Origin: Leucoraja ocellata
Taxonomy: Eukaryota
Assembly (NCBI GenBank): GCA_036785375.1
Contig: JAWMAR010000884.1
Span: 62,001-126,000, forward strand
DNA length: 64,000 bases
Direction of reading: 5' to 3'
Numbering within the stretch: the first letter of the stretch is position 1; each line of letters opens with the position of its first letter. This document shows, one piece after another, positions 4,571-56,755 of this stretch. The position numbers were made by a program, and so were the translations under genes. The notes beneath the pieces were generated by a model. The model did no database searches and was not told where the DNA came from. It worked only from the letters and a program-made list of their open reading frames with translations.

Positions 4571-5324
4571 CACACCACTAGTCACACCACTAGTCACACC
4601 ACTAGTCACACCACTAGTCACAAGCTAGTCACAAGCTAGTCACACCACTAGTCACAAGCTAGTCACACCACTAGTCACACCACTAGTCACAAGCTAGTCA
4701 CACCACTAGTCACACCACTAGTCACACCACTAGTCACAAGCTAGTCACACCACTAGTCACAAGCTAGTCACGCCACTAACCACAAGCTAGTCACACCACT
4801 AGTCACAAGCTAGTCACGCCACTAGTCACAAGCTAGTCACACCACTAACCACAAGCTAGTCACGCCACTAGTCACAAGCTAGTCACGCCACTAGTCACAC
4901 CACTAGTCACAAGCTAGTCACACCACTAGCCACAAGCTAGTCACACCACTAGTCACAAACTAGTCACGCCACTAACCGCAAGCTAGTCACGCCACTAGTC
5001 GCAAGCTAGTCACGCCACTAGTCACACCACTAGTCACACCACTAGCCACACCACTAGCCACACCACTAGCCACACCACTAGCCACACCACTAGCCACACC
5101 ACTAGCCACACCACTAACCACACCACTAACCACACCACTAACCACAAGCTAGTCACACCACTAGTCACACCACTAGTCACAAGCTAGTCACACCACTAGC
5201 CACAAGCTAGTCACACCACTAGTCACAAGCTAGTCACACCACTAGTCACAAGCTAGTCACACCACTAGTCACAAGCTAGTCACACCACTAGTCACAAGCT
5301 AGTCACACCACTAGCCACAAGCTA
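4571..5324. repeat. Minisatellite of 12-bp (GTCACACCACTA) and 11-bp (GTCACAAGCTA) units, ~750 bp
   Basis: Directly visible tandem array with variants GCCACACCACTA, ACCACACCACTA and GTCACGCCACTA. No unique spacers. Confidence 0.97.
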
Positions 5325-10845: not shown

Positions 10846-11345
10846 TTATCCCACCCCGGTCATTCCTTCTTCTCTCTGCTCCCATCTGGCAGAAGGTACA
10901 GAAGCTTGAAAGTGTGCATCGCCAGTCTCAGGGACAGCTTCTTCCCCAATGGAATAAGACATCTGAATGGTCATAGAGTCAGTCATGCAGTGCAGAAACA
11001 GACCTTTCGGCCCAACCTGTAACATCACTTTCAAGGAAGTATGTACCTGCACTCCTACCATGTTACTCTGCGATGCTCCCCAGACCCCCACCATTCACCC
11101 ATGTTAGATGTTCTAAAATGCATCACCTCACATTTCTCTGTATTGTACCGTCTGATTCACCTCTACCCCATTGCAGACATTGGACCGTCTATGGAACTGA
11201 TGCACTATAATGCTGAGATCTATATTCTGCAAACTTGTATCTTACACTTTTCTCCATTTATTGTACTTGAGTTTGACATGAGTGTATTTATGTACAGTAT
11301 TATCAGATCTGAATGGATAACATGCAAAACAAAGTGACAATGATT
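10846..11345 (+). mobile_element. Rex1/Babar-like LINE 3' fragment
   Basis: Encodes HPGHSFFSLLPSGRRYRSLK...LRDSFFP; 3' UTR similar to 25050-25290. Confidence 0.7.
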
Positions 11346-11400
11346 ACTCTAAACCGGGAAATGGTTGCAGGAAAATTGATTGAATAATCACATCTTTCCC

Positions 11401-12266
11401 AGTTCCTACGACGATGGCTCGCTGTTACCGGTCTCGTATGCTTCGCGGACCATGACACGGAGCAACGGTATGCTCAGATCAAGAAGGAGCTCCTGGCGGT
11501 GGTGTTCGCTTGCTCCAAGTTTAAAGATTTCCTCTTTGGCAGCAAGTTCATAGTCAAAACCGACCACCAGCCATTAGTGACTATTCTTAACAAACCCATA
11601 CATGTTGCCCCTGCCAGGCTGCAGCGCATGATGCTGCAGCTCCAGCGTTTTGATTTCCAAATCGTATACAAGAGGGGCACCGAGATGCATGTGGCCAACA
11701 CTCTGCCTCGTGCCCCACGAGCTTCCTGTGACCATCACCCTTACGAGCAGGAAGACCTGCTGGTACTGAACGTCAACTTTGTCCCGACTAAGCAGCTGCA
11801 GTGCCTGGCCGAGCACACCGCCGCTGACCCTGCTTTGCAGCAGCTCGCAGCCGTTATCAAGAGCAGGTGGCCCGACAGATGCACCACTTTACCGTCAGGT
11901 GCCCAACCGTTCTTCCTGGTCTGCGATGAGCTGGTGATCCAAGATGGTGTTATCGTCAAGGGCCACAAGGTTGTGGTCCCAGCTTCTCTGTATGATCTAT
12001 ACTACAACGCAGCCCACAGCGGTCATCCTGGGGTCGATGCCACTATTTCTCATGCCCAAGGGCAATTCTACTGGCCTGGTATGGCCAAATACATCAGGGA
12101 CCGAGTGTCCTCCTGTTCCTCCTGCAACAACCTCGCCCCACACCAGCAGCGTCAGCCCCTTTTGCAGCAGCCGGCGCCTACCATGCCCTGGACATCGCTG
12201 GCTGCCGACATATTCGAATGGCGGGGCAAGCAGTTTCTCGTCCTGGTTGACTCGTACTCCAACTGG
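11401..12266 (+). mobile_element. Gypsy/Ty3 pol fragment (RNase H + integrase HHCC zinc finger to start of core)
   Basis: PVSYASR..RYAQIKKELLAVVF, KTDHQPL, RLQRMMLQLQRF, H-SGH..FYWPGM..C..C, LAADIF..FLVLVDSYSNW (ORF 11499..12293). Confidence 0.92.
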
Positions 12267-12298
12267 AGGCGTGGGTTCGGATCCCACTTCTGACACCA
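12264..12298 (+). other. 3' 35 nt of tRNA-Leu including CCA (extended primer-binding site of the adjacent LTR; not a tRNA gene)
   Basis: TGGAGGCGTGGGTTCGGATCCCACTTCTGACACCA matches the vertebrate tRNA-Leu(CAA/CAG) 3' half TGGAGGCGTGGGTTCGAATCCCACTTCTGACA-CCA (recalled) except A>G at 12280. Confidence 0.85.
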
Positions 12299-12510
12299 TG
12301 TAAAGAAGTCAAGTCTGACACACTTGTAGCTTTACTTAATCTTTAATGATCACCCAGGTTAGACATGTTCCAGCACTGACTGCTTACAGTCTATCACCGT
12401 GCTGGAACCAGGGGAGAGAGAGAGAGTTATTATACTTGATAACTAAGGCGTGGTCAGTGGTACTGAGGTAGCTATATTATTGGTTGCATGCATGAACCAT
12501 CTACACTACA
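12299..12510 (-). repeat. Gypsy LTR (212 bp), TGTA...TACA
   Basis: Minus strand starts TGTAGTG and ends TTTACA, immediately followed by PBS TGGTGTCAGAAGTGGGAT. Contains CCAAT, TATAAT and ATTAAA. Confidence 0.8.
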
Positions 12511-12610
12511 TTCCCCCATGAACCTGCACATTCATGCCTTCATTGGTGCTTCTGATAATATTAACATTCACCAGTGTAAATAGGTTTTGCATTTTACTGA
12601 ACTGAAGAAA

Positions 12611-12704
12611 CTGAAGAAGGGTCTCGCCCGAAACGTCACCCATTCCTTCTCTCCAGAGATGCCGCCTGTCCCGCTGAGTTACTCCAGCATTTAGTGTCTA
12701 CCTT
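12611..12704 (+). mobile_element. Penelope pLTR-derived mini-element with minimal hammerhead-like core
   Basis: CTGAAGA-AGGGTCTCGCCC-GAAA-CGTC, followed by the same 3' sequence that follows the Penelope ORF at 19435-19555. Confidence 0.7.
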
Positions 12705-14334
12705 TGCATTTTACACTCTGCTTGAATCTCTTTACTATGACAAAAACGCTGGTCAAATGTTAAATTTACTTAAATAAAAAGCGAAAATGCTGAAAATACA
12801 CATGTCAGGCAGTATCGGCAAATAGAACGAGTTAACTTTTCAGATTGAAAACTTCTTGTCAGATCTTTGGCTGATCAGATTGAAAACTTCTTGTCAGATC
12901 TTTGGCTGAAAACATAAATCCTGTTATTCATTCCATAGATACTTGTCTACCTGAAAACTTCCAGCAGTTTCTGTTTTTATTTCATATTACTAGTCAAAAT
13001 AGCGGGATCTAGTGTTGATGGGGCATCTTGATTGGCATGGACAAGTAGGGCTGAAGAGCCTGTTTCAATGCTGTATGACTATGACTTACTGCATTGGCAC
13101 TTTTTTAAATTATTTTCATAACTGTTAAATTATTTTGGTCTTGATGCTTTATGCAAATATTTGCAAAAATATTTTGTGGTTGGAGGCAAGCATCATCTCC
13201 ACTGGAAAATAGAATATCGGTATAATATTTCAGTGATTTACGAAAGCAGCGCTAAAAATGTGTAGCCACATGTTTAAATAATTTCCCCAAAATCAGCCAA
13301 ATTATCAGTTGATAATGTTAAGCTAGAGTGAAAATGTTTTCCCAAGTAACTCGGTCCATGAAATTCTCTTGAGCATCTAAGCTATGTCTGTTGTAGGGGC
13401 TGAATTTCAATAGACCCTGGAATAAGTAATCTGACACTTTCTCAGGCAGGGAATGGCTTAAGCCAAATGGAAGTCAAAAACGCGAAAGGAAGTAAAATAT
13501 TGAGAGTTAATATAATCAACTTAACTTTAAGCAAAATTAGGATGGTAATGAATGATTAATTTTGTTCTGATAGAAGACGTGCAAAGATAAACCGTTTTCT
13601 AATACATTAATTTTCAAGAGATGGTGTGAATGGCAAGGCCAACATACATTGCCCCTCACTAATTGCTCCAAGAAGATAGGTATGAGCCACCTATAGTCAC
13701 TTCCACAAACCACTCCAGTCCACCTGGTAAAGGTACCCCGGTTGTACAATTGGATTGAGAATTCCACGACATATACTGAAGAAAAAATGGTGTATGTTTA
13801 AGTCACAATATCGAGTAACCTGGAGGGGAATTTGCAGTTTATGGTGTTTCTACAAGCCAGCTACTCTTGTTTGACTGAGGTCATGGGTGCTGACGAGGGA
13901 GCTGTAGCAATGAGCTGAAGTTTGTTCAACACTGTACTCATTGCAGCCACCAATGAAGATGGAAAGATTCAACTATTAGGCTGGTAGGTGGGGTACCAGG
14001 CAAATAAGATTTGTCCTGAGAGGCCGGGCAATTGAGATTTGCACACATGCAGCTAAATGGAGGGTATCCCTACTTTCCAGGCATGTTTCTTTAAATGGAA
14101 AAGGTTTTCGAGAGACATGTTGTAACCAGTAACAGAACTGTTCTTGCAGAAAGTATCCAGCTAAGTTTCCAATCAATGTTGGTTAAATCAAAATGATTGA
14201 TTGGAAGCATTGATGATAACAGCAGCCACTGAGGATGCCTGAGCAATGCGTACCCATTGTCTGCCATATTCAGCACCTCTCTTGGGTCAACAGAAAACAG
14301 CAAACATGCTTGGGAAAGTGTGTATCTATGACTC

Positions 14335-16795: not shown

Positions 16796-16930
16796 TTCAC
16801 TTCACATTGATAAATTCCGATCAGATACTCTTTATTTGAAAAGTACAGACTCCTCCCAAGTGCAGACTGACCCCTCCCATTTCTTCCAAATCCAAGGCGT
16901 AGCTATGGGCACGTGCATGGTCCCCAGCTA

Positions 16931-18545
16931 CAGTGGCTTGCAAAAGTTTTCATACCCCTTGAACTTTTCCACATTTTGTCACGTTACAACCACAAACATA
17001 AATGTATTTTATTGGGATTTTATGTGATAGACCAACACAAAGTGGTGCATAATTGTGAAGTGGAAGGAAAATGATACATGGTTTTCAATTTTTTTTACAA
17101 ATAAAAAACTGAAAAGTATGGCGTGCAAAAGTATTTAGCCCCCCCGAGTCAATACTTTGTAGAACCACATTTCGCTGCAATTACAGCTGCAAGTCTTTTG
17201 GGGTATGTCTCTACCAGCTTTGCACATCTAGAGACTGAAATTTTTTCCCATTCTTCTTTGCAAAATAACTCGAGCTCAGTCAGATTGGATGGAGAGCGTC
17301 TGTGAACAGCAATTTTCAAGTCTTGCCAGAGATTCTCAATTGGATTTAGGTCTGGACTTTGACTGGGCCATTCTAACACATGAATATGCTTTGATCTAAA
17401 CCATTCCATTATAGCTCTGGCTGTATGTTTAGGGTCGTTGTCCTGCTGGAAGGTGAACCTCCGCCCCAGTCTCAAGTCTTTTGCAGACTCTAACAGGTTT
17501 TCTTCCAAGATTGCCCTGTATTTGGCTCCATCCATCTTCCCATCAACTCTGACCAGCTTCCCTGTCCCTGCTGAAGAAAAGCATCCCCACAGCATGATGC
17601 TGCCACCACCATGTTTCACAGTGGGGATGGTGTGTTCAGGGTGATGTGCAGTGTTAGTTTTCTGCCACACATAGTGTTTTGCATTTAGGCCAAAAACTTC
17701 AATTTTGGTCTCATCTGACCAGAGCACCTTCCTCCACATGTTTGCTGTGTCCCCCACATGACTTGTGGCAAACTGCAAACAGGACTTCTTATGGCTTTTT
17801 TTCAACAATGGCTTTCTTCTTGCCACTCTTCCATAAAGGCCCGATTTGTGGAGTGCACAACTAATAGTTGTCCTGTGGACAGATTCTCCCACCTGAGTTG
17901 TGGATCTCTGCAGCTCCTCCAGAGTTACCATGGGCCTCTTGGCTGCTTCTCTGATCAATGCTCTCCTTGCCCGGCCCGTCAGTTTAGGTGGACGGCCATG
18001 TCTTGGTAGGTTTGCAGTTGTGCCATACTCTTTCCATTTTCGGATGATGGACTGAACAGTGCTCCGTGAGATGTTCAAAGCTTGGGATTTTTTTTATAAC
18101 CTAACCCTGCTTTAAACTTCTCCACAACTTTATCCCTGACCTGTCTGGTGTGTTCCTTGGGCTTCATGATGCTATTTGTTCACTAATGTTCTCTAACAAA
18201 CCTCTGAGGCCTTCACCGAACAGCTGTATTTATACTGAGATTAGATTACACAAGTGGACTCTATTTACTAATTAGGTGACTTCTGAAGGAAATTGGTTGC
18301 ACTGGATTTTATTTAGGGGTATCAGAGTAAAGGGGGCTGAATACTTTTGCAGACCACACTTTTCAGTTTTTTATTTGTAAAAAAAAATTGAAAACCATGT
18401 ATCATTTTCCTTCCACTTCACAATTATGCACCACTTAGTGTTGGTCTATCACATAAAATCCCGATGAAATACATTTATGTTTGTGGTTGTAACATGACAA
18501 AATGTGGAAAAGTTCAAGGGTTATGAATACTTTTGCAAGCCACTG
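16931..18545 (-). mobile_element. Tc1/mariner DD34E DNA transposon, full length, long (~200 bp) IR/DR-type TIRs, TA target duplication
   Basis: TA|CAGTGGCTTGCAAAAG...CTTTTGCAAGCCACTG|TA. TIRs match over ~200 bp with an internal GCAAAAGTATT repeat. Confidence 0.96.
17149..18167 (-). pseudogene. Tc1 transposase (about 339 aa if restored), one 1-bp frameshift in an A-run near 18090
   Basis: ATG at 18167 (MKPKEHTRQVRDKVVEKFKAGLGYKK), then ORF 17149..18078 with GRPPK, WSDE, QQDND-34aa-E (SPDLNPIE). Span is 1019 bp, one short of 340 codons. Confidence 0.9.
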
Positions 18546-20854
18546 TATGCCTGCCTCTTTGTAGGAGACGTTGAACAATCCTTGTTTGAGGCATACCATA
18601 GCCCTATCCCCGAACTCTACCGCCACTACATTGATGACTGCATTGGTGCTACCTCCTGCATCCATGCAGAACTCACTGACTTCATCTATTTCACCGCTAA
18701 TTTCCATCCAGCACTCAAATTTACCTGGACCATTTCCGACATCTACCACAAACCCACTGACTCCCATGGCTATCTTGACTACACTTCTTCCCACCCTGCT
18801 CCAACTTCAACGGGATCCCACCACTGGCCACATCTTCCCATCTCCTCGCCTTTCGGCTTTCCGCAGAGACCGCTCCCTCCGTAATTCCCTGGTCAATTTG
18901 TCCCTTCCCACCAAAACCATCCCCTCCCCTGGTACTTTCCCTTGTAACCGCAGGAAATGCTACACTTGTCGCTTTACCTCCCCCCTCGACTCCATCCAAG
19001 GACCCAAGCAGTCTTTCCAGGTGAGGCAGAGGTTCACCTGCACCTCCTCCAACCTCATCTATTGCATCCGCTGTTCCAGGTGTCAACTGCTCTACATCGG
19101 TGAGACCAAGCGCAGGCTTGGCGATCGCTTTGCCCAACACCTCCGCTCAGTTCGCAATAACCAACCAGTAGCTCAGCACTTCAACTACCCCTCCCATTCC
19201 GAATCCAACCTTCCTAGCCTGTGCCTCCTCCATGGCCAGAGTGAGTCCCACCACAAATTGGAGGAGCAGAACCTCATATTTCACATGGGTAATGTACACC
19301 CCAGTGGTATGAACATTGATTTCTCCAATTTCAGGTAGCCCTTGCTTTTTCCTTCTTTCCCCTCCCCTTCCGAGCTCTCCCACAGCTTAGTGTCTCCGGC
19401 ACTTCCTTTCTCCCCCCCCCCCCCCCACATCAGCCTGAAGAAGGGTCTCGACCCGAAACATCGCCTATTCCTTTGCTCCATAGATGCTGCCTCTCCCGCT
19501 GAATTTCTCCAGCATTTTTGTCTACCTTTGATTTTTCCAGCATCTGCAGTTCTTTCCAAGACATACTTGGTCTGGTCTGCAACTCTGTGAAATTAATTCA
19601 AATGAAATGGAAGTGGCAGCCAAACAAAGTTAATGAACGGTAAGGGAACCATTTAGAATATTTATTGTTACAGTGTGACTGCTTTATTTATGCCGTTGTT
19701 AGAAGATAATGGAAATAGTTCTCTATCCTGAGAACACTCAAAGTGTTCTTTCTCTCCCATAATTCATTGATATGTTATTCCATCTCAAGGGCTTCCAATT
19801 GCATTTCAGGCTCAGCAGCAAGCGAGGCCAATTTTAGGGACAGGACAACAGCATCACGAGAGCACAGGTCAGCACCATCGACACTCGCTTACTAATTTTT
19901 CAGCCCTCCATTTAGCAAGCCATCAGTTTCGTACTCCAGCAGCTCTGCTGATTACCGTGATGTCTTGATAACTGATCCTAGCCTTTCATTGGTGTTTCAG
20001 AAACACTAGGGCAACCTTCACTGAACATGTGTGCTGGCTGTTCAGTGTCTCTTGGGGTAACATCATCAAAATTTTGCAGTACAGAAATATCATACTGATT
20101 GACAGCCAGATGCATTTTACCATATGGTGCCGTGACCTTAAATAACTTGTCCCAAGGTCGATCCTTGCAGATTTTGGCAATTTTCATGGAAGGGACAGAG
20201 TGGGGAGATGCAAGGAGTCGATATTATAGCAGCAGGAAACAGTGCTGGATTTGTAGACTACATGCACTTCTCAAAAGCAGGAATTAAAAACACATGCAAG
20301 AATGGTATTAAAAGCTGTAATATGGAAGAGTGGAAAAAAAGGAGGTGAAGAGGAGAATGTTAATTCTTCAAATAAAAGTTGTAAAACAGATTAACATACA
20401 GGGAATTTAAAGACATCAAAGGTCCCAGCATAATTTTTTATAAATTAGGCAAATCAGGTTAATTTGTTGGAGCACTGGTTTGCAAATAAGAACCAGTGGG
20501 GCTAGTTCCACAATCTTTCTATCCAACCTCAAATAAGATATAGGCGATTTGGAAATATTACAGAGAAAAGTGTTGGATTGATTCCCGTCTTTGGCGGGTC
20601 CAGTTATGAAGAAAGGCTTAAGCAGCTTAAGTTATTTTTATTTAATCAAAAAATAAGCTGAGCAGTGCCATAATAATGATCCTCGAAATAATGGAAATAT
20701 GCATTATGTTGAAATGTGAAATAAGCAAAATATTTAAACTGGACTCCAACCATCAGAATAAAAAAAAACAAGTAAAAAATCCAGCAAGTAACCGTTGGGA
20801 AAGGAAATTCTCCACTGGTATGAACTTTCCTGGGTTTTCCAGTCCCTTCACTGC

Positions 20855-27327: not shown

Positions 27328-28767
27328 CAGGGCTGGAAATTAACGGTTGCCCGGGTGCCACTGACCACTCAAAGTGCCGCTGGGCAACCTAAATGGCGAA
27401 TCATTTTGCCCGGCTTGGCAACTTGGTTTATACCGTAGACCGAAGTGTGTTGTGACGGAGGGTCGGAGCGAAGGACGGGTCCCGCGCAGCCGTGGCTCCA
27501 TCTCCTCCCCCTCCTCCTGCTCCTGCTCCTGCACCCCGCCCGGCCCGATAACGGCTGCTGCTGCCACTCTGCTTTGAAAGCAAACCCTTGTAGGGGGGAG
27601 GTGTCGGTCAGAGGCAGAAGGGGAGGGGGGAGGGGGGGGGGGCGCACTGAGGATAGAGCGCGATGATTGGAAGAGGGAGACGTGCCAAAACACTCTCGGC
27701 AGCCCTGCACCGCAGCCAGGATCGATCCGGCGCTGCAATCGCCGCCGAACCGCCACTGGACCACTGGACCATCCCCATCCCCGCGAGAAGTGTCGTGAGT
27801 CAGACGGGAGCCGTGCCGCTAGGCCCACAGCCAGCACAGAGAAGCAGCGCAAAACCCAGCTCACTCTGCCTGTCCCTGTCTGGATTGAGACAGGGCTGTA
27901 GGCGAGACAGGCAGAGTTCAGCTGCATTTAGCGCTGGATTGAGCTGAAATTACCGTTCACGGGACCTCCGAATCCTCGCGCACGTGTGTGAATGTGCGCA
28001 TGCGCGCGCGGCCGCCAAGATATTCTGTCCCCCGGTCCCCTCTATATTTTTATAGCAATTTCCGTGCCTGATAGGGATGCCGAAGGCAGCGATGATGCCG
28101 GTGATGTCCGAGGAGCGCTGGCCCTCCCTCCCACCTCCTCTGCCCCTTCCTCTCTCTCTCTCTCTTGTACGCCCCCCTCCACTCCCCCTTATCCTGAGAC
28201 CCCTCCTCTCCATCCCGCACTGATCCCCATTCCTGCCTCTATTCAGTCCTCACTGACATCCCCCGTGCTCCCCTCCTCATCTACTCTCCCCCCTCCCCCA
28301 TCTATTCATCCTGCACTGATCTCCCTATCAATCTCGCATTGATTCTCCTGCCACTCCCCATCAATCTTACACTAGTCCCCCCAATTGATCCTGTACTGAC
28401 CCCCCTTCCCATCCATCCTGCACTGCTCCTCCCCTTCATCCAGCACTGCTCCCCCATCCATCGTGCACAGATCCCCCCCCATTCAACCCACTGTCATTCC
28501 CGCGCTCTCCCCTCATAATTTTATCTACTCCAACCAACACGCACTAATTCCCCTGCCTCAATCCATCCAATCCGCACCGATTGCCTTCTCAAGCCCCCCC
28601 CCACCACCATCTATCCATCCTGCACTGATTCACACACCCCCCCCCCGACCCTATTGTGCTGGAAACGTCTTCAGAGCGAACATCGACAATGTTTGATAAC
28701 GGAATGCGATCAAATATGTTTTAATTCCCGATGTTATTATTTGTTTTAATCCATAAAGATGGATTAA
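27328..28767. mobile_element. Probable hAT-like non-autonomous DNA element (left end only), GC/C-rich interior
   Basis: Begins abruptly within the LTR with CAGGGCTGGAAATTAAC and subterminal GGTTGCCC/GGGCAACC motifs. The matching right TIR was not found. Confidence 0.45.
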
Positions 28768-28943
28768 TTTTACTTCGGAGTCACGTGAGTGACTACGTGA
28801 AGAACCCACCCAGCGCGCAGGCGCGGCATTACGTCAGCAGTGCAACAGCGGCAGCAGCTGGAGCCAGGCTCTCCAGCTGCAGCATAAAGACAAGACCTCA
28901 GGTAAGTGCCCTTTTTTGTTACAGAGTCGCTCCAGAGAGAATC

Positions 28944-30155
28944 ATGGCCTCTCGCAAGCGACCAGCCAGGAGGACTGCCTGCCCAACTCCACCCGAGGAC
29001 GGGTCCATAGCGGGACGGCAGCCTCTCGCAGCGGAGGAGCCTTTTCAACGCTCCCGCTCACCCGACACCGAGCCGCCCCCAGTGCTGCAGATTTCAACGC
29101 CCCGCACAGGGAGGAAGGCGACACATAAAACCGACCGGACGGTGTCCTCCGATGAATCGGAGGAACGGGAACACTCTCCCCCACCGAAAAGGGGAGATGC
29201 TCGGATCAGCTGCATGAGGCAGCTCCTAGAGCGAATGATAAACGAGGAGATGCGGCATCTCCCAGGAGGACGGGCTTTGGCCTCCTCCTCTCCACACCCT
29301 TCTGTACCCTCTATGTTCGAGGGCAGTAAGGGAGGCCAGGACTGGGCTGGCCTATCCCAAGGGCAGGCGGAGGATACCATCAGCATGCCGGGCGTGCCGG
29401 AAGAAGAGCTACTGGGTGTAGTGGGCCGATATGCAGCGCCCCCAAAAACTGGGATGGTGTTGCCACCCAGAATGGCGGCCACCATAAACAGGCTGTCCAA
29501 CAACCCGCTGCAGGACAAGGCTGTCCAGCAGGCCCTTGACAATTACATAGCGCCAGAAAATTGCGAGGCGCTGAGGGTCAAGACGGTCAATGGGCAGATC
29601 TGGAACCAGCTGGGGCAGCAAATCAGGGCTCAGGAAGTCAAAATGCAGCGAGTCCTGAAGCTCCACTCAGCAGCCGTCACCGCCTTTGCTCGGTCCGTTG
29701 GGGATGAAGACCTGACCATACCCCAGCAGGATGCCCTCGCACTGATGTGCAGCACCACCTATGAGCTAAATAACCTACGGCGGGACAACATCAGGCCTGC
29801 CCTCAACCCAACATATGCCGGCCTCTGTAAAGCTCCAGCGCCCGAACGACAGGCGCTGCTATTTGGTGCGGATCTGGCCAAAAGGCTGAAGGAGTTGGAA
29901 GAGGCGGCAAAACCAGTAGGCCTCATGAGGGCAGGGCCAGGACCGAGCAGGGTGAAGACACCCAGTTGGCCGCACGCCTCGGCAGCCACCAGCAGATACC
30001 GAGCTGGTGAAAGCCTGGTGACCGCCTCCCACTACCCCCAGAGCTCTTTTTTAGAGCGGGGCCCAGGGCGGAGCCGTGGGAAGATGCGCCGCCCCACCGC
30101 AGCACCAACACGGACAACCTTGGGCCAGACCCACCGAAAACGACCCCACAAGTGA
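28944..30155 (+). CDS. DIRS ORF1 (gag-like), 403 aa from the ATG inside the element
   Basis: Uninterrupted ORF; PENCE.L.V..VN..IW and ELN.LRRD.IRP.L..LFG.DL motifs typical of DIRS ORF1. Confidence 0.85.
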   Translation: MASRKRPARRTACPTPPEDGSIAGRQPLAAEEPFQRSRSPDTEPPPVLQISTPRTGRKATHKTDRTVSSDESEEREHSPPPKRGDARISCMRQLLERMINEEMRHLPGGRALASSSPHPSVPSMFEGSKGGQDWAGLSQGQAEDTISMPGVPEEELLGVVGRYAAPPKTGMVLPPRMAATINRLSNNPLQDKAVQQALDNYIAPENCEALRVKTVNGQIWNQLGQQIRAQEVKMQRVLKLHSAAVTAFARSVGDEDLTIPQQDALALMCSTTYELNNLRRDNIRPALNPTYAGLCKAPAPERQALLFGADLAKRLKELEEAAKPVGLMRAGPGPSRVKTPSWPHASAATSRYRAGESLVTASHYPQSSFLERGPGRSRGKMRRPTAAPTRTTLGQTHRKRPHK

Positions 30156-30157
30156 AC

Positions 30158-32092
30158 ATGGAGGTAGGTGGGTCTGGTTCCTGTCAACATACACAGACAA
30201 AGGGTGTAGTATTAACAGGGGGACGTTTGAGGTTCTTCAAGCATGTTTGGTGCTCCCTTACTAACAATAAGTTTATACTCAACAGTATTAGTGGATACAA
30301 AATTGAGTTCAAACCAGGCGTAGAACCGCCAGTTCAGCACATGCCCCAAAGGGTGTTCCTTCCCTCGGCAGTTGAGAAGGTAGAAGGACAAGCTGAACTT
30401 GATCGGCTCGTGGCTAAAGGCATCATAGAAATGACCACACACGAGCCGCAAGAATTTGTATCAAATATTTTTCTCAAAACCAAAAAAGATGGTGGATGTC
30501 GCATTATTATTGATCTGACGTCACTTAATCAGTCTGTTGAGTATCAACATTTCAAAATGGAGACATTTGTCACTGCCAGACAACTGATCTCCAAGGGATA
30601 CTACATGGCAAGCATAGATATCAAAGATGCTTACTATTTGGTACCCATTCATAAAGATTACTTTAAATATCTGAAATTTATCTGGAGGGGCCAGCTATGG
30701 CAGTACCGAGCTTTGCCCAATGGTTTAACGACAGCTCCCAGACTATTTACGAAAATTCTTAAAGTGGCCATGAAGAAATTGAGAGAACTAAAATATTTAG
30801 TTGTGGCCTATCTGGACGATGTTCTCATATTAGGAAGAACACGGGAACAAGCTGTCGCAGGAGTGTTAGCCACTAAACAACTCCTTGAAACTTTGGGTTT
30901 TATCCTTCACCCAGATAAATCAATATTGGAGCCTACTACTAACATGGATTACCTAGGCTTCACTATTGACACGATTCACATGACTGTCACTCTGCCCAGA
31001 GACAAAACAGTTTCACTCATTGAAGCTTGTAGCCATTTAATTGCTACACCGCAACCTAGAATACGGCATGTAGCCAGAGTTATTGGCTCTATAGTAGCAG
31101 CATTTCCGGCTGCCCAACATGGGCCCTTGCATTATCAAAATCTACAAAGAGCAAGGACTCATGCATTACGCCTTCATAGGGGGCATTATGATCGCAAAAT
31201 GGATTTACCCGCTGAAGCCAAATCAGAACTTCAGTGGTGGGTTGACAATATTTGGCACAGTCACAGTCCTATCGCCGTAACCAATCCTAACATAACCATT
31301 GCAACGGATGCCAGTGCTTTAGGCTGGGGAGCTACTAACTCCATAGACAGCACAGGTGGCAGATGGACTAACTCAGAGGCATCGCTACTACAATCACTGG
31401 GCATTAACTTTTTGGAAATGCTCGCCGCCTTTTATGGGCTAAAAGCATATGCATCTGATATGCGGCACGTGCATGTTAGAATCATGATCGACAACACTAC
31501 GGCAGTATCTTATATCCAGCACATGGGTGGCATTAAATCAGTATCATGCGACAAATTAACTGCTATAATCTGGCAATGGTGTGTCGAGAGACATATTTGG
31601 CTATCAGCTGCCTATTTACCAGGCAAGCTAAATTTAGTGGCGGACACCAGGTCACGAAAATTCAACGACAACATCGAATGGATGTTGGACCCAAAATTAT
31701 TTGCTAAAATTGTCAAGCAATATGGTACGCCAGATATAGATTTGTTTGCGTCTAGGTTAAATCACCAACTACCCATGTATGTGGCTTGGGAACCAGACCC
31801 AGAGGCAGCAGCGGTAGATGCCTTCACGCTGGATTGGGGAAATTTCTTTTTCTATGCTTTCCCTCCCTTCTGCCTCATCAGTCGGGTACTCCAGAAAATT
31901 CAGGCAGACTCAGCCTCTGGCATTCTGGTCGTGCCCGACTGGCCTACCCAACCATGGTTCCCAATGTTCCACGACATGGTGGTAGAGACACCTATGGTCC
32001 TTCAACACCACCCCCAATTATTGACTCACCCGGTAACTGGCATTAGCCATCCATGCCACCAAAAATTGAAACTCCTGGTTTCCAGATTTTGA
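30158..32092 (+). CDS. DIRS ORF2: reverse transcriptase + RNase H + DNA adenine methyltransferase-like domain
   Basis: GGRL, IDIKDAY, LPNGL, YLDD (RT); TDAS, INFLE, DNTTAV, ADTRSR (RNase H); DLFAS...YAFPPF...VPDWPTQPWF (MT-like). Confidence 0.95.
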   Translation: MEVGGSGSCQHTQTKGVVLTGGRLRFFKHVWCSLTNNKFILNSISGYKIEFKPGVEPPVQHMPQRVFLPSAVEKVEGQAELDRLVAKGIIEMTTHEPQEFVSNIFLKTKKDGGCRIIIDLTSLNQSVEYQHFKMETFVTARQLISKGYYMASIDIKDAYYLVPIHKDYFKYLKFIWRGQLWQYRALPNGLTTAPRLFTKILKVAMKKLRELKYLVVAYLDDVLILGRTREQAVAGVLATKQLLETLGFILHPDKSILEPTTNMDYLGFTIDTIHMTVTLPRDKTVSLIEACSHLIATPQPRIRHVARVIGSIVAAFPAAQHGPLHYQNLQRARTHALRLHRGHYDRKMDLPAEAKSELQWWVDNIWHSHSPIAVTNPNITIATDASALGWGATNSIDSTGGRWTNSEASLLQSLGINFLEMLAAFYGLKAYASDMRHVHVRIMIDNTTAVSYIQHMGGIKSVSCDKLTAIIWQWCVERHIWLSAAYLPGKLNLVADTRSRKFNDNIEWMLDPKLFAKIVKQYGTPDIDLFASRLNHQLPMYVAWEPDPEAAAVDAFTLDWGNFFFYAFPPFCLISRVLQKIQADSASGILVVPDWPTQPWFPMFHDMVVETPMVLQHHPQLLTHPVTGISHPCHQKLKLLVSRF

Positions 32093-33063
32093 ACAGGCCT
32101 TACCGGGGATTGGGGTTATCAGACAGAACAATCACCACCATGTCGGCATCCCTGCGAGTTTCCACCAAGAAACAGTACCTGACCTTCATCAGGAAATGGG
32201 AACAGTACTGTCTGGACGCAGGGACATCCTACAAGACGGCTTCGATCACGGATGTGCTGGAGTTCCTGGCCCACCTGCACCATGATCTCAAGATGAGCTA
32301 CAGTGCCATCAATACGGCTCGGAGCGCACTGTCCGCATACCTCATGCCGATAGGACAGCATAGTGTGGGATCCCACCCTCTGGTCATCAGACTCCTTAAG
32401 GGGATCTTTAATACCAAACCCCCTACACCTAGATACACCCACATGTGGGATGTGAGTGTAGTTCTGACACACCTTCGAGGTTGGCCTCCGGTGGGATCCC
32501 TGAGCCTGGAACAGTCCACTTATAAGACCCTCATGCTCATGGCGCTTGTCTCAGCTCAAAGGGTTCAGTCGCTCCATCAGCTAAATCTGAACTACATGGT
32601 GACCACCCCAGATACCATTACTTTCACCATGCCGGGGTTGGTAAAACAAAGTAGACCAGGTACATCAAACTCCCCGTTGATCTTCCGGGCTTACCCTCCA
32701 GAACCTAGGCTGTGTGTGGTGACCCACCTTCGTCATTATCTAGACACAACCCAAACGCTTAGAGGGAGAGAGAAAGCCTTATGGGTTAGCCACAGAAAGC
32801 CTTTTGGACGGGTTACCAGCCAGACATTATCCAGATGGTTGAAACAGGTCCTCAGCATGGCAGGGATTAACACAAATGTTTTTAAATCCCATTCAACCAG
32901 GGCAGCGTCCACCTCAGCGGCGGATAGGATGCAGGTTCCCCTAGACCACATCCTCAGAGCAGCGGGATGGTCAAGGGAATCGACATTCCAACGATTTTAC
33001 AGAAAACCGCTGATGGAACAGGACGTCTTTGCGGATACCATTTTAGAAACCGCAAAGTTATGA
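32053..33063 (+). CDS. DIRS ORF3: tyrosine recombinase (true start may be ATG 32140)
   Basis: SAM-like N-terminal domain (FLAHL..SYSAINTARSALS); catalytic SAQR, K, HSTR, AGW, FQRFY. Confidence 0.95.
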   Translation: MPPKIETPGFQILNRPYRGLGLSDRTITTMSASLRVSTKKQYLTFIRKWEQYCLDAGTSYKTASITDVLEFLAHLHHDLKMSYSAINTARSALSAYLMPIGQHSVGSHPLVIRLLKGIFNTKPPTPRYTHMWDVSVVLTHLRGWPPVGSLSLEQSTYKTLMLMALVSAQRVQSLHQLNLNYMVTTPDTITFTMPGLVKQSRPGTSNSPLIFRAYPPEPRLCVVTHLRHYLDTTQTLRGREKALWVSHRKPFGRVTSQTLSRWLKQVLSMAGINTNVFKSHSTRAASTSAADRMQVPLDHILRAAGWSRESTFQRFYRKPLMEQDVFADTILETAKL

Positions 33064-34171
33064 TTTAAAGCCCATGGGAGCTACTTTTTGTTATAGTTAA
33101 TAAACATTTCTTTTATAACTAAACAAACTTGTTGTTCTTTAGCTACCACTACCTTCCTCGATGATCTTTCGGCAGTGAGTGATATAACTGTTACACGGTT
33201 TGAAATCACAGACCTTTGAAGTCTTCACGTAGTCACTCACGTGACTCCGAAGTAAAATAGTAAGATTAAACGAGTACTTGCCAGTACGAAGTTTGATCTG
33301 TATTTTATGAGGAGTTACGATGAGGGATTACGTGCCCTCCGCTCCCACCCTCATTATATAGATCAAATTCGGACTAATGTCTCGTTGGTCTTTACTATCT
33401 TTACTTCAACTAGTGTCTATCTGTGATTCCACACCGCTGCTTGGAAGTATGCCGCGCCTGCGCGCTGGGTGGGTTCTTCACGTAATCCCTCATCGTAACT
33501 CCTCATAAAATACAGATCAAACTTCGTACTGGCAAGTACTCGTTTAATCTTACTATTAAATTGTGAACACGTGAAACATTAAAACCGCAGTGTTCAATTG
33601 TCACTGCTACCGTTGACACATTATTACATAATTCATTTTAATGGCGAATCAATGTTCTTGATATGGAGTATCAGTACTGTAGTTATTTACTGAGCAACAT
33701 TCACAACTATATGTTGGATTTATCCAGATTTTACTTCTACAGTCAGTCATATACATCACAAATTTGGTCAGGAGATATTTCAGTTGAAATTTTAAAGTTA
33801 ATTCTGAAGTGGGAATGATGGAAAAAGCATTTATCAACAATTTTTTTTTAAATTGTTGCTTACAAACTGGGTATCTTCATTGCTGTTCACAACACATACA
33901 TCTAATCTGAATGTCCGGTAATGTGGCGTCTTGACACCTTTAAATATATTACCAAAAGAACATTTGCTGCATTTATGTCCTTTGGCCATCTCTTGTTAGT
34001 TGGTGTAATGTTTAATGGGTATAGTCAGTTTTAACAGCTATTATCATAAAATGCCTTTAGAAAATTCCTTGCAACCTGTATATTTTGTTGTGGATAAATT
34101 ATGTGGGAAGCGAGAGTGTTTCTGTCCCAATAGCAATAACGACCCATGCTATGGCCATGTCATGATAATTT

Positions 34172-35644
34172 TCAGTCCTTCACGGAAAACCTAACGATCA
34201 GCCTGCGACACCATTCAGTGGGTTCTTCGACTTTAGTCGTGATGTCCTGCTCGACCAGCTTCATGAGACCATTCATGACCTTCTCTTTCATGGCTACACG
34301 TACAGGCTTTGGAGAACACTGTGATGGGATCACATCCTCCATCCTAGTTACCAACTTGACCTTGCCAGGCAGTCTCCCAGGTCTTTCGTCGTCAAAGACA
34401 TCTATGTAGCTCTTGAGTAATGAGCCAGCCTCGCTAACAGCATTCAGGCTCTTGAAGTTCTCGTCATGAACCATGATGAGTTTCATCTGTTGTGCAGCTT
34501 TGCCACTCAGTAGCGGTGTGAGCCAGCCTTCCTCTACCACTATGAAGTGAACCCGGTACTTCTTGTTGTTCGTCTCGTTCCGGAGTACGAATTTCGTCCT
34601 ACCTTCCGCCAGCAGGTTGGATCTGTTGCACATCTTTAAGGTGATTTTCTCTTGTCTAATGTCCTCTTTGATGGGTACAAGATGCTTGGCAATCACATTA
34701 ACACTGGCACCAGTCAATCCGAAACTTGATGGCTGCTGTGCCGACCTGCATCTCAGCAAATAGAGCTGGAGGAATTGTTCCAGCTGCATTGATCTCAATG
34801 TACTCAGACTGTGTCGGAAATGGACGTTGTGTCAGATGTATCTACGACTTTGTGCAGACCCCGTTTCTGCATGCTCTCGTTCCTCTGCTTGCAGCAGCAG
34901 GCGGTGGTTTTGACGTGCGCATCTGTAGCATTCCTTCCCATACGCTGGGCATTCCTCCTTCCAACGCTTATCTGTCTTTACACAGAACTTGCACTTTACT
35001 AATCCCTGATTCTTCCTCTGTGAAAGAAAATCAACCATCTTTTCCCTTGGTTTGAATCGTTCCACCTTGTGTATTTTTGGCTCTTCGCTGATGACCTGCA
35101 TTCTTGCCGCTGTTAACTCCGTCGATCTACATATGTCCACAGGCCCCTGCAGTGTCAGATTCCTCTTTTGAAGCAATGTCTTCCTAGTTGACCGGTCTGC
35201 AATACCAATGACGATGCAATCTCGAATGAAGCTTTCTCTCAGGCACTCACAGAAGTTGTATGTTTTAGCAAACTCCTTCAGCTCTGCAACACAAGATTCA
35301 ATGCTTTCCCCTGATTTCTGGTCTCGTTTATTGAATATGAATCTTTCATAGGTTTCATTCGTCTCTCCTATGATGATGGTAGACATCTTGTCGATGATGA
35401 CTTTCACATCCGTCTCATCTGCTACCGTCTCGAACGTCAGGGTATTGTAGATTTGCACGCACTGCGGTCCAACAGTATGCAGGGATACTGCTTTTTGATA
35501 CTGTTTCTCCTTCTTCTCCAGTTCTGTTATCACTGCATAATTTTCATACATTTGTTTAAACATTTTCCACTCTTCCATCTTGTTCTCTTTGAGCTTTAGA
35601 TTGGGTGGTGGAGCCACGTGGAGAGATGGACTGGTCTGCGCCAT
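34172..35644 (-). pseudogene. Gypsy gag (34832-35644) and protease/RT-start remnants (34172-34798)
   Basis: ETYERF.FNKRDQ..GES, IRD.IV.GI, CPAYGKEC..C knuckle. TGASVN protease-site remnant and KVEEPTEWC. Confidence 0.85.
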
Positions 35645-36139
35645 TTTGAAATATCAGCACATTCCCTCGCTCTTACTAGCTTATTTTATCTTTAAGCAGA
35701 CTCTCACAGCACGCCGTTTTAAACATCAACTCCCACAGTGCTAATTTACACGCAGCATCTCAGCTTTGTGTGTTCACTGACCTGTATTCACTCAAGCATG
35801 CAGCCAGTCCGGTCACTGAGCATTGAAACATTGATTTCTGAAAGCTTTACAAAGCATTTTTTCTAATCATCATAGTGTCCATTTGATTCACGAATGTCCA
35901 CTTTCACCACTGCCACCATGTTTTGATATCTGTCTGCTTATAAAATAAATAATCTGGTACATAATATACAGAGAAAGATGGCTACACACACACTCATTTT
36001 GGAGTCTAAAACAGGAATTATTTATTTCCAAGTCAAAGGTCACTGACTAATTTACTAAGCATGTGCGAGAATGAGCACAGCTCACATGCATAATTTACAG
36101 GGATATTGTCACACAATTAGACAGGTATATGGACAGAAA

Positions 36140-52149: not shown

Positions 52150-55100
52150 ATTTTACTTCGGAGTCACGTGAGTGACTATGGGAAGAACCCGTCCAGCACA
52201 CATGCGTGACATGAGCGTTCACACAGTGCAACAGCGACGAATGGGAGTACGGGCGCTCCCGCTACAAGCTGAAAGAACGGGCCATAAGGTAAGTACTTAT
52301 CCACAGGTTCCGATTCACAACTTTGTGCCTCTTTGTGCAACAGGGGAAAACTGGAGCAAAGCAGCACAGAGGAAAACCGCCCCCATTCGACTCTAGGGAA
52401 GGAGCGTTCCATCAGTGAATGGGGCGAGAGGCGGCACCTGGACCGCACACGCTGCGGTCCACAGTCACGGGTACCGAGCCCAGCTCAGCCCGCTAGTGCT
52501 GCCTGACCAACAGCAGCGGGCTGGAGGCAAATCAAGATACAGACCAGCCGGTAATCCCTGCATACTCCGACAAGAAGACTCGCCACGACAACAACAGAGG
52601 CAGCCGCCAGAGCAAAGTTGGAGACCAGTCGCAATGGGCTGGAGACAGACACACGGAATACTGACAGGCCGGCTCATTCAGAGAGTGGGCACTTCAAACT
52701 ACCGCCCGAGAGCGAGAAAGTGTCTGTTTACAAGCCTTAGAGAAAGGTCATGGAGTAAAAACTCCAGTGAAACTTGCCTCGGGAGCTGGGGCAAGCTCAC
52801 CAAGGGAGCACAACACTCACGCTCCCGTGCACTAACAGCACTGGCCATCGCATCTCCCGATGATCAGAGGGGATCGTTGGCAACCAGGGCTGGGCTGGTC
52901 AAGAAGAGGGGTCACTGGCTGAACAACATCGGGAGTTTGCTTGAGGTACAGGACCAGGAAGAGCTGCTGGGTGTGAGATACCGCTATGTGGCTACACCAC
53001 GAGCGAGATGGCCATTACAGCCTAATCTGGCGGCCAGCTTACTACCTGTTTTTAAAAAAAACCTCTCCAAGACAGGTAGTCATGAGGCGTTGGACTTTAT
53101 CACGCCTCCCCAAAATTGCATTTGCTCAAAGTGCCTACTGGGTACATTGGGGGTACATTGAGCAGGGCATTTAAAACCCAAAATCTTAATTTGCAATATT
53201 GATACCCCTGACGTTGGCTATCATTTTGCATGCTCATTCCAGAGGGGCAGGGTAGTATGGCAAAACACCTGACCCTACTGTTCAACACAGTATGTGATCC
53301 GCAACCTCTGGAAGGAAGTCATAAAACCTGCCCTCAACCTAATAAAATTCACAGGACTGTGAGAACGCCGACCTCAGAACCACAGATCCTGCTATCTGGC
53401 AAAGTTACCAAATCAAGCCTAAAAACTGGACGAAGTGTCCAAGATATTCGTCCTCATGAGGGCAGGTCCTGGAATGAGCAAACCACACAAAAGCAGACAG
53501 CAGTACCTCCATGCTTCCACCAGTAGGCGTCTTCCTCATGGTACTGGTGAAAGCTCGGGGCCCGCATGCCATTCTCCGCAAGTTTTTCAGGACTAGGGCC
53601 CATACCGGGCCCCATGGAAAATGCGCCCCCCCCCCCCCTCCCTCTGGACTCTGCTTCAGGTATTTTGATACCCGACTGGCCTACACAGCCATGGTTCCCA
53701 TTGGTCCTTGACATGGTAATCGAAACCCCAATTACTTTCCCAGTAGACCAGACTTATTAACTCACCCGGTATCAGGCATAAGCCACCCATGCCACGATAA
53801 AATCAAACTACTGGACTTGCAGATTTTGAAAAGGCCACTGCTGGGCCTGGGATTGTCAGACAGCACTATCAACACGATGACAGCATCCCACCGCATGTCC
53901 ACAAGGAAACAATACTTGTCGAACATCAAGAAGTAGGAAAGATACTGTTCGAATACAGGAACTACATATTCAACCACTACAATAACAATGTACTGGAGTT
54001 CCTGGCAGGCCTTCACCACAATGAAGGACTCAGCTACAGCACCATTAACACAGCCAGAAGTGCTCTGTCAGCCTACTTAATTCAGGCACCAGGACAACAG
54101 GCCATAGGGTCCCAACCACTGGTGATCAAACTCATGAGAGGCATATTCAACTCTAATCCCCCAGACCTAGGTATACCCAAATCTGGGATATCAGTGTGGT
54201 TCTGACATACATTAGGGGATGGTCACCAGGCAGGTCCCTCACCCTGGAACAGCTAACCCTGAAGACGGTCATGCTGATGGCATTTGTCTCAGCACAAAGA
54301 GTCCAGTCCTTCCATCTTCTACGATTGGCCAAGATGTAACACCAGACCGTGTCTCATTTACCATCCAGGGGCTGGTCAAACAGAGCAGACCAGGAACATC
54401 AGGTCCAGTCATGGAATTCCGGGCATACCCACCTGAACCATGGTTATGTGTCATGACCCACTTATTGAATTAGATCGACACAACAAGAAATCCCCGAGGG
54501 AGTGGAAAAGCCTTATGGGTCAGCCACAAGAAACCTCATGGTCGGGTGATGAGCCAAACTATCTCAAGATGGCTCAAGCAGGTACTGGGAGCTGCTGGAG
54601 TAAATACTAACATGTATACATCTCACTCCACCAGGGCAGCATCCACATCGGCGGCTAAGAGGATGGACGTGCCTATGGACCACATCCTGGCTACAGCGGG
54701 GGGTCTAGGGAGAAAAACATTCCAAAATTTTTATAACAAGCCGCTGGCAGAACCTTATCATTTTCAGAAAAAGTATTAGAATCTGCAAATATATAAATTA
54801 AGCCCGGGGGAGCATTTTGCTTTGTTATTGTTTAAATAACACCATTATTGTTTATACAAACAGATCATGGTTGATTACGATAATATACTTCCTCCCTCGA
54901 ATGACTTCGGCAGCGAGTGAAGTATGAACTGTTACACGGTTTGAAATCACAGAGCTTTAAAATCTTCACGTAGCCGCTCACGTGACTCCGAAGTAAAATA
55001 GTTCTCATTTAATCTTACTATTACTTTTAATAGTAAGATTAAACGAGAACCTACCAGTTCGAAGTTTGATCTGTATTTTATGAGGAGTTACGATGAGGGA

Positions 55101-55331
55101 TTACGTGCCCTCCGCTCCCACCCTCAATTATAGAGATCAACTGGTATTTAAGTTCTCTTTTTCTTTACTATGTTTATTTCAATTATTGTGTCTTCTGTGA
55201 TTCCACACCGCTGCTTTGAAGTATGTTGCGCATGCGTGCTGGACGGGTTCTTCACGTAATGCCTCATCGTAACTCCTCATAAAATACAGATCAAACTTCG
55301 AACTGGTAAGTTCTCGTTTAATCTTACTATT
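52150..55331 (+). mobile_element. Decayed DIRS1-type element (related family), RT/RNase H deleted, YR pseudogene, termini and ICR retained
   Basis: Same terminal/ICR sequences as 28768-33557. gag remnants, junction at ~53625-53645 joining the gag end to the MT end (DSASGILIPDWPTQPWF), YR fragments (GLVKQSRPG, SHSTRAASTS) with stops and frameshifts. Confidence 0.93.
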
Positions 55332-56067
55332 AAAAGTAATTAGGAAAAGGGATAGAGGGGACATGAGAAGCAAAAATATCACTCGGAGAGCCGAAGAGGT
55401 CTGGGGTTCTGGGACATAAAGGGTAGTCAAGGCAGCAACTCTCTTCACATTTGAATACACAATGCATATGTGCCTAAAGAGCTATGACCCTTCAGGATTA
55501 CTGACCAATTGTAGAGGCTAGAATTAGGCTAGATAGTATTTAGTTTTCATCAGTATAGACATTATTGGTTGAATGGCTACTTTCTGTGTCATACATTTTT
55601 TATATTTCAATGATATTTTCCTCTTTCTATATTTTTTCACATCATTGGTTCTTTAAATAATTTCCTTATTAATAATTGTCTAGACCTTTCATCTTTTATT
55701 GCTTCCCTATCTTTGCTTCTTTTTCTATTTTCATGCAAATGTTGCTTTTATTTTTTTGATTTGCTGTGCTCCAGGTTACCAAGACTCGAGTATCTTGATA
55801 AGGATGACAAAGTTGGGGGCAGGGGAGGCCGTTGCTCTTCTTGCGGGCCTTGGATAAGCTGTGAAATAATTAGCATTTATTGTTATGCACAGAAATGAAT
55901 CTTAACAGCTTTGCTTTGCCTGTTCTGTGACCACAACTCAACATCACTCTGCTCAGTCACCCAGCCTTTGACCTCAGCCTTCCCACAAATACAAATCAAA
56001 GTTTACCTTGAGCAGGAGGGAAAGGCAGAGGACAGAGATGGGGATGGAGGTTATATAGGAAGGAATT

Positions 56068-56755
56068 TCAGATGCTGATTTACACTGAAGATAGACACAA
56101 ATTATTGGAGTAACTCAGCGGGTCAGGCAGCATCTCTGGAGAAATGGAATAGGTGATGTTGCGGATTAAGTCTCTTCTCCAGACTGAGAGTCAGGGGAGA
56201 GAAAGAGGTATGAAAAGCAACCGAACAGAGCAGATCCAGCACCAATGAGCAAAAAAGCACACAATGGTCCAATGAAGGTATATGAAAAGTAAACTAGCAG
56301 GATGACTAGGGTTAGAAGGGGATGGAGAGAGAGGGAATGCAAGGGTTACTTGAAATTGGAGAAATCAATACTTATATGACTGGATTGTGAACTGCCCAAG
56401 CAATATATGAGTTACAGTTCCTCCACTTTGCATGTGGCCTCACTGTGATAGTGGAGGAGGCCCAGGACAGAAATGTTAATATGGGAAAGGGAAGGGGAGT
56501 TAAAGTGTTTGCAACTGGGAGATCACGTTGGCCAAGGCGGACTGAGCATAGGTGTATGGCGAAATGATCGACCAGTCTATGCATGGTATCACCGATATAT
56601 AGTGTATTCCACACTGAGTCCACACTGAGTCCACACTGAGAACAACAGCTACAGTAGGTCAGGCTGGAGAAAGTGCAAGTGAACCTCTGCCTCACCTGGA
56701 AGAACTGTTGGGGTCCCTGGATGGAGTCGAGGGAGGAGGTATATAGGGACAAGTG
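56068..56755 (-). mobile_element. Penelope-like element 3' fragment (GIY-YIG + pLTR), decayed
   Basis: IQGPQQFFQVRQRFTCT..LYIGDT in ORF 56372..56752; pLTR mini-element sequence at 56070-56190. Confidence 0.8.

Follow-up and report, generated by a model that had tools for sequence, protein, structure and literature searches.

Structure of the insertion

Between positions 11396 and 12515 of the 64,000-nucleotide stretch of Leucoraja ocellata DNA analysed here (the window; 62001–126000 of contig JAWMAR010000884.1, from a 3.44-Gb genome assembly that was scanned as a whole), the minus strand reads from a Gypsy LTR into the complement of tRNA-Leu and then into antisense pol, the very order given in a preliminary description of this DNA. 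The Ty3/Gypsy LTR (12299–12505, minus strand) is complete, with TG...CA ends, and is at most 95% identical to other copies of its family, which set its boundaries. Family copies start TGTAGATGG directly after the PPT or host DNA; therefore TGTAG (12506–12510) lies outside the LTR, whose length is 207 bp rather than the 212 bp proposed before.

Directly after the intact LTR, 42 nt (to 12257) match tRNA-Leu with one mismatch; the last 10 of these are also identical to pol. The tRNA copy is 36–42 nt long, which exceeds 18 nt. The earlier estimate of a 35-nt match was right in that the sequence extends past 18 nt, and was too short. On the minus strand, bases 1–11 from the tRNA 3′ end (12288–12298) are equivalent to the normal short PBS of the family, and bases 12–18 (12281–12287) are copied primer that is missing from intact members. 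The mismatch at 12280, the 19th base from the CCA end, lies opposite tRNA position 58, where A has been read as G, putatively through misincorporation at m1A58; that this is the sole departure from tRNA-Leu had been claimed, and we found it to be so. Beyond it, 12267–12279 is a read-through copy of the T-arm and the 3′ variable arm, found in the tRNA only. The best-fitting primer is a tRNA-Leu-CAA isodecoder whose gene contains an intron and whose variable loop reads AACT. The fragment is too short for automatic recognition: neither ARAGORN, run over the whole window, nor Rfam, run over 11000–13000, called a tRNA.

The tRNA copy and pol overlap in CTCCAACTGG (12257–12266, not assigned to a strand), a perfect 10-nt microhomology between the tRNA-Leu-CAA variable arm and pol that presumably marks the zone of template switching. 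Microhomology had been recognized at this join, as CTCC..CTGG, and only its extent needed correction. The variable-loop C at 12263 lies inside the overlap and was either read faithfully or supplied by pol. The pol fragment itself (861 nt, 11406–12266, plus strand, antisense to the LTR) runs from the end of RNase H to the start of the integrase core and comprises the RNase H C-terminus and the integrase zinc-binding domain (P0001; PF17917, PF17921), its frame being broken just upstream of 11460. Compared with the pol of an element that has this LTR at both ends, it differs by 5.7% (94% identity), and LTR and pol belong to one family.

At its far end the window copy has no LTR piece and no attachment site, and a single LTR end is all that it possesses. 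CTACG (11406–11410, plus strand), which is also pol-homologous and may be microhomology, and CTACA (12506–12510, plus strand) are identical at 4 of 5 positions and flush with the two ends, which makes CTAC(A/G) the candidate TSD; because CTACA repeats the LTR's own terminal 5 bp, a small templated duplication is possible there. TTCCC (11396–11400, plus strand; partner at 12511–12515), previously named as the TSD, lies 5 nt outside each defined end and is probably not one, since TSDs of this family measure 5 bp and directly abut the LTRs (exact in 6 of 8 two-LTR copies and near in 2, two of the eight sharing flanks). With TTCCC doubtful, normal two-ended integration is doubtful too. We lean slightly towards a model in which integrase joined the LTR end and the far end was repaired through microhomology at CTAC; the alternative is capture at a break. 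When each flank was used to search this assembly for an empty site, only the window, a second copy and one unrelated repeat were found.

The second copy (L002, contig C82) has the same junctions and the same G at position 58; its insert differs at 28 of 1100 bases (2.5%) and its flanks diverge by ~2% over some 10 kb. The junction is known from assembled contigs, and the preliminary description had named an assembly chimera as a possible flaw. The recurrence of both junctions in this diverged, separately assembled copy argues against a chimera, as do hundreds of analogous junctions genome-wide, and we consider the chance of one negligible.

Other elements also populate the window. A DIRS-like element (28725–33063, plus strand) has three uninterrupted overlapping frames, one unknown or gag-like, one RT (PF00078) and one tyrosine recombinase (PF00589), with repeats at 33256–33560 and a copy at 55020–55340. 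A Tc1/mariner element (16929–18547) encodes a transposase frame of 314 aa between inverted ends of 180 nt (94%). Related GIY-YIG-type fragments, which we take to be Penelope-like, lie at 1–774, 18565–19360 and 56324–56842; two frames at 34172–35653 (minus strand) resemble Gypsy gag/protease remnants by eye and have no Pfam match, and 4571–5324 is a tandem array of about 32 copies of 23-nt units.

Two-LTR copies of the parent family have two direct TG...CA LTRs, a PBS, a PPT and a short TSD, and in the natural copy L178 pol is ordered protease–RT–RNase H–integrase (Pfam matches). The family may belong to the Mag-like clade. Intact members carry pol in the sense orientation, and in none of the 13 normal leaders does the tRNA match exceed 7–11 nt, so that whatever follows base 11 of the tRNA match in the window was copied from the primer. 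The expectation that LTR and pol would prove to be of one family with a short PBS and sense pol was thus borne out, whereas the 18-nt PBS described for the window is a perfect stretch of copied tRNA. A tRNA extension fixed in the family was rejected, intact relatives having only the short PBS. Within the family, extension with a faithful A58 occurs in two deleted two-LTR copies (L182, L183) and in one PBS duplication (L032).

Ten of the 13 normal leaders carry a second, 7–9-nt box complementary to tRNA-Leu bases 26–34 from the 3′ end, located ~13 nt after the short PBS (L036, L039, L045-L047, L053, L054, L056, L060, L007). This bipartite PBS bypasses most of the T-arm, and similar boxes are visible in other families. 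One short, internally deleted two-LTR copy of the family is present with identical flanks on several contigs (L039, L044, L049, L052, L055, L057-L059), and therefore sits inside a multicopy duplicated block.

Searching with the exact 28-nt 5′ motif of tRNA-Leu-CAA/CAG genes retrieved 35 genes, 34 of them with the 3′ half. Position 58 is A in all 34, which answers the earlier question of whether a G58 gene exists: there is none among them. Likewise, all 34 have C in the variable loop at the 36th nucleotide counted from the 3′ end (hereafter loop C). In many tRNA-Leu-CAA genes of two clusters (L189-L192, L209-L214, L216, L218) A57 replaces G57; the junction patterns used below required G57, and fossils of the A57 isodecoder consequently lie outside the counts.

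The junction class across the genome

The survey pattern of 28 nt, from CCA to position 49 with any base allowed at 58, gave 368 exact matches in the genome against 0 for the reversed pattern used as a control. Hence the junction in the window, which had been regarded as a one-off accident, belongs to a class found at 368 sites. The detailed set, the first 100 of the 368 matches (those on the largest contigs), collapsed to 88 events that span about 45 LTR groups; the largest group has 15 members and contains all four bases at 58. In 82 of the 88 events the CA end of the LTR directly precedes the tRNA copy.

On the LTR strand, the base at 58 was T in 51, A in 31, G in 10 and C in 8 of the first 100 matches, and T in 45, A in 27, G in 10 and C in 6 of the 88 events, which corresponds to 45 faithful copies, 27 A>T, 10 A>C and 6 A>G. 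Position 58 is thus misread in 43 of 88 events (49%), so that further LTR junctions with extended tRNA and a mismatch at base 58, a search for which had been recommended, are indeed present. The expectation per site is ~3%: a pattern that keeps the faithful base at 58 but tolerates one mismatch has 533 matches genome-wide, which, compared with 368, leaves at most 165 mismatches on the other 27 positions. Indels at 58 were absent from 116 matches of a tight pattern; L237 lacks two bases in the region of position 58.

The change seen in the window, A>G, is the rarest class of misreading (6 of 43) and also the one best mimicked by a later transition. The read-through might be genuine and the G at 12280 nothing but an ordinary later A>G mutation, which would accord with the rarity of the class (6 of the 88 events), with the background of ~3% per site, and with a duplicated pair, L110/L111, that differs at 58 (T vs C). 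However, the G is common to the window copy and the diverged L002, and must predate their split; moreover, the A>G class is several-fold commoner than later mutation of faithful copies would give (an estimated 1% or so). A later transition is thus unlikely, and, because A>G is a minority class and yet predates the split of the two copies, we put the probability of misincorporation in the window copy at ~0.88.

Among the first 100 of 1171 junctions defined by a common LTR end plus a 9-nt PBS, 67 had a short PBS, 17 stopped near 18 nt and 16 were read-throughs, as judged by eye. To look for other primers, a general pattern was placed directly against LTRs ending in ACA, a design that misses elements with a spacer before the PBS. 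It gave 6 matches against 13 in the control, and three of the 6 are mutated copies of the same tRNA-Leu primer. Two more, L241 and L243, are read-through junctions of a different primer, presumably another Leu isoacceptor, both with G at 58.

Downstream of the tRNA copy, a comparison library of three natural copies of the window's family identified sense element sequence in 43 of the 88 events, antisense element sequence in 12, and sense element sequence reached later on in 3; the other 30 were unrecognized by this one-family library. A second LTR match lies within the examined DNA in 23 events, 15 of which have an exact 5-bp TSD and two of which have LTRs that are 100% identical; some of the 8 without an exact TSD are failures of boundary calling. 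In a few events the strand jumped directly back to an LTR end, giving mini-elements with TSDs (L116, L117, L133). Such mini-elements, composed of an LTR, a tRNA copy and 10–25 nt of LTR end, were noted at L116, L117, L121, L133, L145 and L162, several with 5-bp TSDs.

These continuations bear on another explanation of the window copy, in which a deleted element of the sense type came first and its pol piece was turned round when the genome was later rearranged. The window copy does lack a second LTR end, and its TSD is ambiguous at the far end, as an inversion would allow. Yet the break lies within 10 nt over which tRNA and pol agree perfectly, a match that requires pol to be antisense, and the 12 antisense switches in other events, some with intact TSDs (L075, L110), also speak against inversion, which we judge quite improbable.

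Further misread sites and the RNA template

Of the events that read at least 4 nt past loop C, 57 in number, 44 misread this base (35 C>T, 7 C>A and 2 C>G), whereas the 11 positions neighbouring it are each misread in at most 4 of 57 (Fisher p 1e-44). Leu-CAA fits 55 of these 57 events; the 2 that fit Leu-CAG are both misread. At least half of the read-throughs contain a misread base, an indication that the base bypassed was modified. The ends of the tRNA copies are also uneven: 9 of the 88 events end at n=35 nt, 23 at 41–43 nt and 16 at 48–50 nt, the first cluster falling just before loop C and the last near G37. Thus, at position 58 and at loop C misreading and stops are in position-specific excess over the neighbours while the base in the genes is unchanged, and at G37 this excess is weak. 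From these patterns we infer that the modified bases are m1A58, m3C at loop C and m1G37.

A pattern that selects for the spliced tRNA exon junction found it crossed at 7 loci, representing 5 events, all of which have the complement of the CCA end. Crossing of the spliced junction shows that the template was mature RNA; L134, where 3 nt of intron are matched in place of the spliced form, counts against this. A mismatch at G37 is present in 2 of the 5 events, a weak signature, and one event continues into the D-arm.

Could tRNA have come to lie beside LTRs through LINE-made tRNA retrocopies, or through DNA recombination with tRNA genes? Chimeras of tRNA halves and LINE-1 do occur in mammals (PMC13174262). 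We rejected a LINE origin as largely refuted, since in 82 of 88 events the LTR end passes directly into the CCA of the tRNA copy and many events end in a second LTR with a 5-bp TSD; copies that are spliced and bear the CCA exclude gene DNA as the source. Together these routes are extremely improbable.

The spectra might also reflect variants of tRNA genes (extinct or unassembled alleles) that were copied faithfully from unmodified primers. The gene set bearing on this comprises only the 35 genes with the exact 28-nt 5′ motif, and position 57 does vary among genes; furthermore, the report on HIV-1 discussed below regards the changes in 5 of its 44 cases as mutations of the sequence and, in its accessible part, favours hypomodification (PMC12657518). 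Against gene variants stand the uniformity of A58 and loop C in 34 of 34 genes, the presence of all four bases at both sites in 13 of 16 combinations across isodecoders, and the clustering of ends, 9 of 88 of which stop at n=35, just short of loop C, and 16 at n=48–50, around G37. We consider such variants very unlikely.

Loop C is, we assume, the position of m3C47d/e2, as counted from C48 in these genes and in the human sequence. The misreads at loop C are likely a signature of the m3C type, mostly on Leu-CAA. In the accessible parts of the respective reports, m3C47d/e2 was mapped on Leu-CAG and not on Leu-CAA, both in human cells (PMC5066629) and in zebrafish (bioRxiv 10.1101/2024.01.30.575011).

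Proposed mechanism and relation to known systems

Our reading of the window locus, at the probability of ~0.88 given above, is that plus-strand strong-stop DNA was extended beyond m1A58, where a wrong base was inserted, then changed template at the 10-nt microhomology and became fixed in the germline. Elements of this type have only a short native PBS of 9–11 nt. By analogy with Ty1/Ty3, the first strong-stop DNA would copy the primer, pair incompletely with the end of the minus strand and normally be a dead end. The statistics above strongly suggest that m1A58 is often no barrier to the RT, which misreads it in about half of the cases; the RT would then stall or misread again at loop C (likely m3C) and mostly end by G37 (likely m1G37). 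The strand resumes, as is visible in the sequence, on the element or on other sequence; in the window it may have paired with a template of sense polarity and copied 861 nt of it backwards. A second LTR end was regained by many of these products, which carry exact 5-bp TSDs. Accordingly, of the earlier proposal for the window, strong-stop read-through of m1A58 is considerably strengthened by the genome-wide spectrum, the singularity of the event is abandoned, its TTCCC TSD is doubtful, and the jump onto genomic RNA that it specified is indistinguishable from one onto plus DNA.

Products of this class are known from HIV-1, where 44 defective proviruses have LTR, PBS and a 7–54-nt tRNA insert at a deletion junction, ascribed to deferred second-strand transfer, and where 5 of 44 inserts are changed at position 58, interpreted as hypomodification (Hardy et al. 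2025, PMC12657518). The skate junctions share with them the LTR, PBS and tRNA insert and the changes at 58. Two hallmarks of deferred second-strand transfer are seen in the window, namely more than 18 nt of primer complement after an intact LTR and the mature-tRNA origin of this extension, which the intact parents lack; a third, sense continuation toward a second LTR, is replaced by antisense continuation with no second LTR, although 43 of the 88 events elsewhere do continue in sense. As far as the accessible text of the HIV-1 report goes, its products are somatic, rare and transferred to the minus strand, whereas those of the skate are germline-fixed, occur in ~45 LTR groups, are misread at 58 in 49% and, unlike the HIV-1 case, show a second and a third modified site, antisense switches and a short native PBS.

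In Ty1/Ty3 the first plus-strand strong-stop DNA is a dead end and the PBS is bipartite (review PMC5371799). The skate elements are similar in their short PBS, in the copying of the primer into strong-stop DNA that is normally not inherited, and in the second tRNA box of the leader (10 of 13 here); however, Ty strong stop ends after about 12 nt in the account available from that review, whereas the skate copy extends from 18 to more than 50 nt and is rescued into the genome. That m1A58 acts as the plus-strand strong stop has been demonstrated in vitro (Fukuda et al. 2021, PMC8599865), and the 18-nt stop class seen by eye (17 of the first 100 junctions) is its counterpart here. Over-copying blocks completion and integration according to the accessible part of that study, in contrast to the over-copied skate products, which were integrated, often with exact TSDs.

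Misincorporation by RT at m1A is established (PMC4787781), and maps of modifications made with RT show the combination of stop and mismatch at m1A58, m3C47d/e2 and m1G37 (PMC4787781, PMC5066629, 10.1101/2024.01.30.575011). The skate signatures are alike in this, but, judged against the accessible portions of those maps, they differ in having been made in vivo by the elements' own RTs, in being stored in the genome and in a loop-C signal that is mainly from Leu-CAA. For PBS variants of mouse ERVs, misincorporation was considered and rejected, in what is accessible of that report (PMC7472051). The literature covered by our search contained no survey of LTR-tRNA junctions in the germline across several families, no use of such junctions as records of modification, and no m3C on Leu-CAA. 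Within that literature the product class is known, from HIV-1 proviruses, and what is new is an archive that is fixed in the germline, spans many families and bears modification signatures that are clear by statistical test.

We think it on balance probable that Gypsy elements whose PBS is short and bipartite serve as natural, heritable sequencers of tRNA modifications. In that case m1A58, m3C on Leu-CAA and m1G37 of past germ cells would be recorded in hundreds of insertions that can be dated, m1A58 would be routinely bypassed rather than an absolute stop, and overrun of the primer, at roughly one in six of the 5′ LTR junctions sampled, would be a leading origin of two-LTR elements with deletions. 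A single odd junction has in this way become a countable dataset, which bears on whether m1A58 stops RT of LTR elements in vivo and whether overrun needs an unmodified primer. It also offers a route to internally deleted elements that retain both LTRs, and a warning for annotation, since perfect PBS calls of at least 18 nt in short-PBS families can be copied primer. The same reading predicts that tRNA-Leu-CAA bears m3C in its variable loop, a specific modification that is cheap to test for, and, if it is true, the history of tRNA modification could be mined from assembled genomes without RNA.
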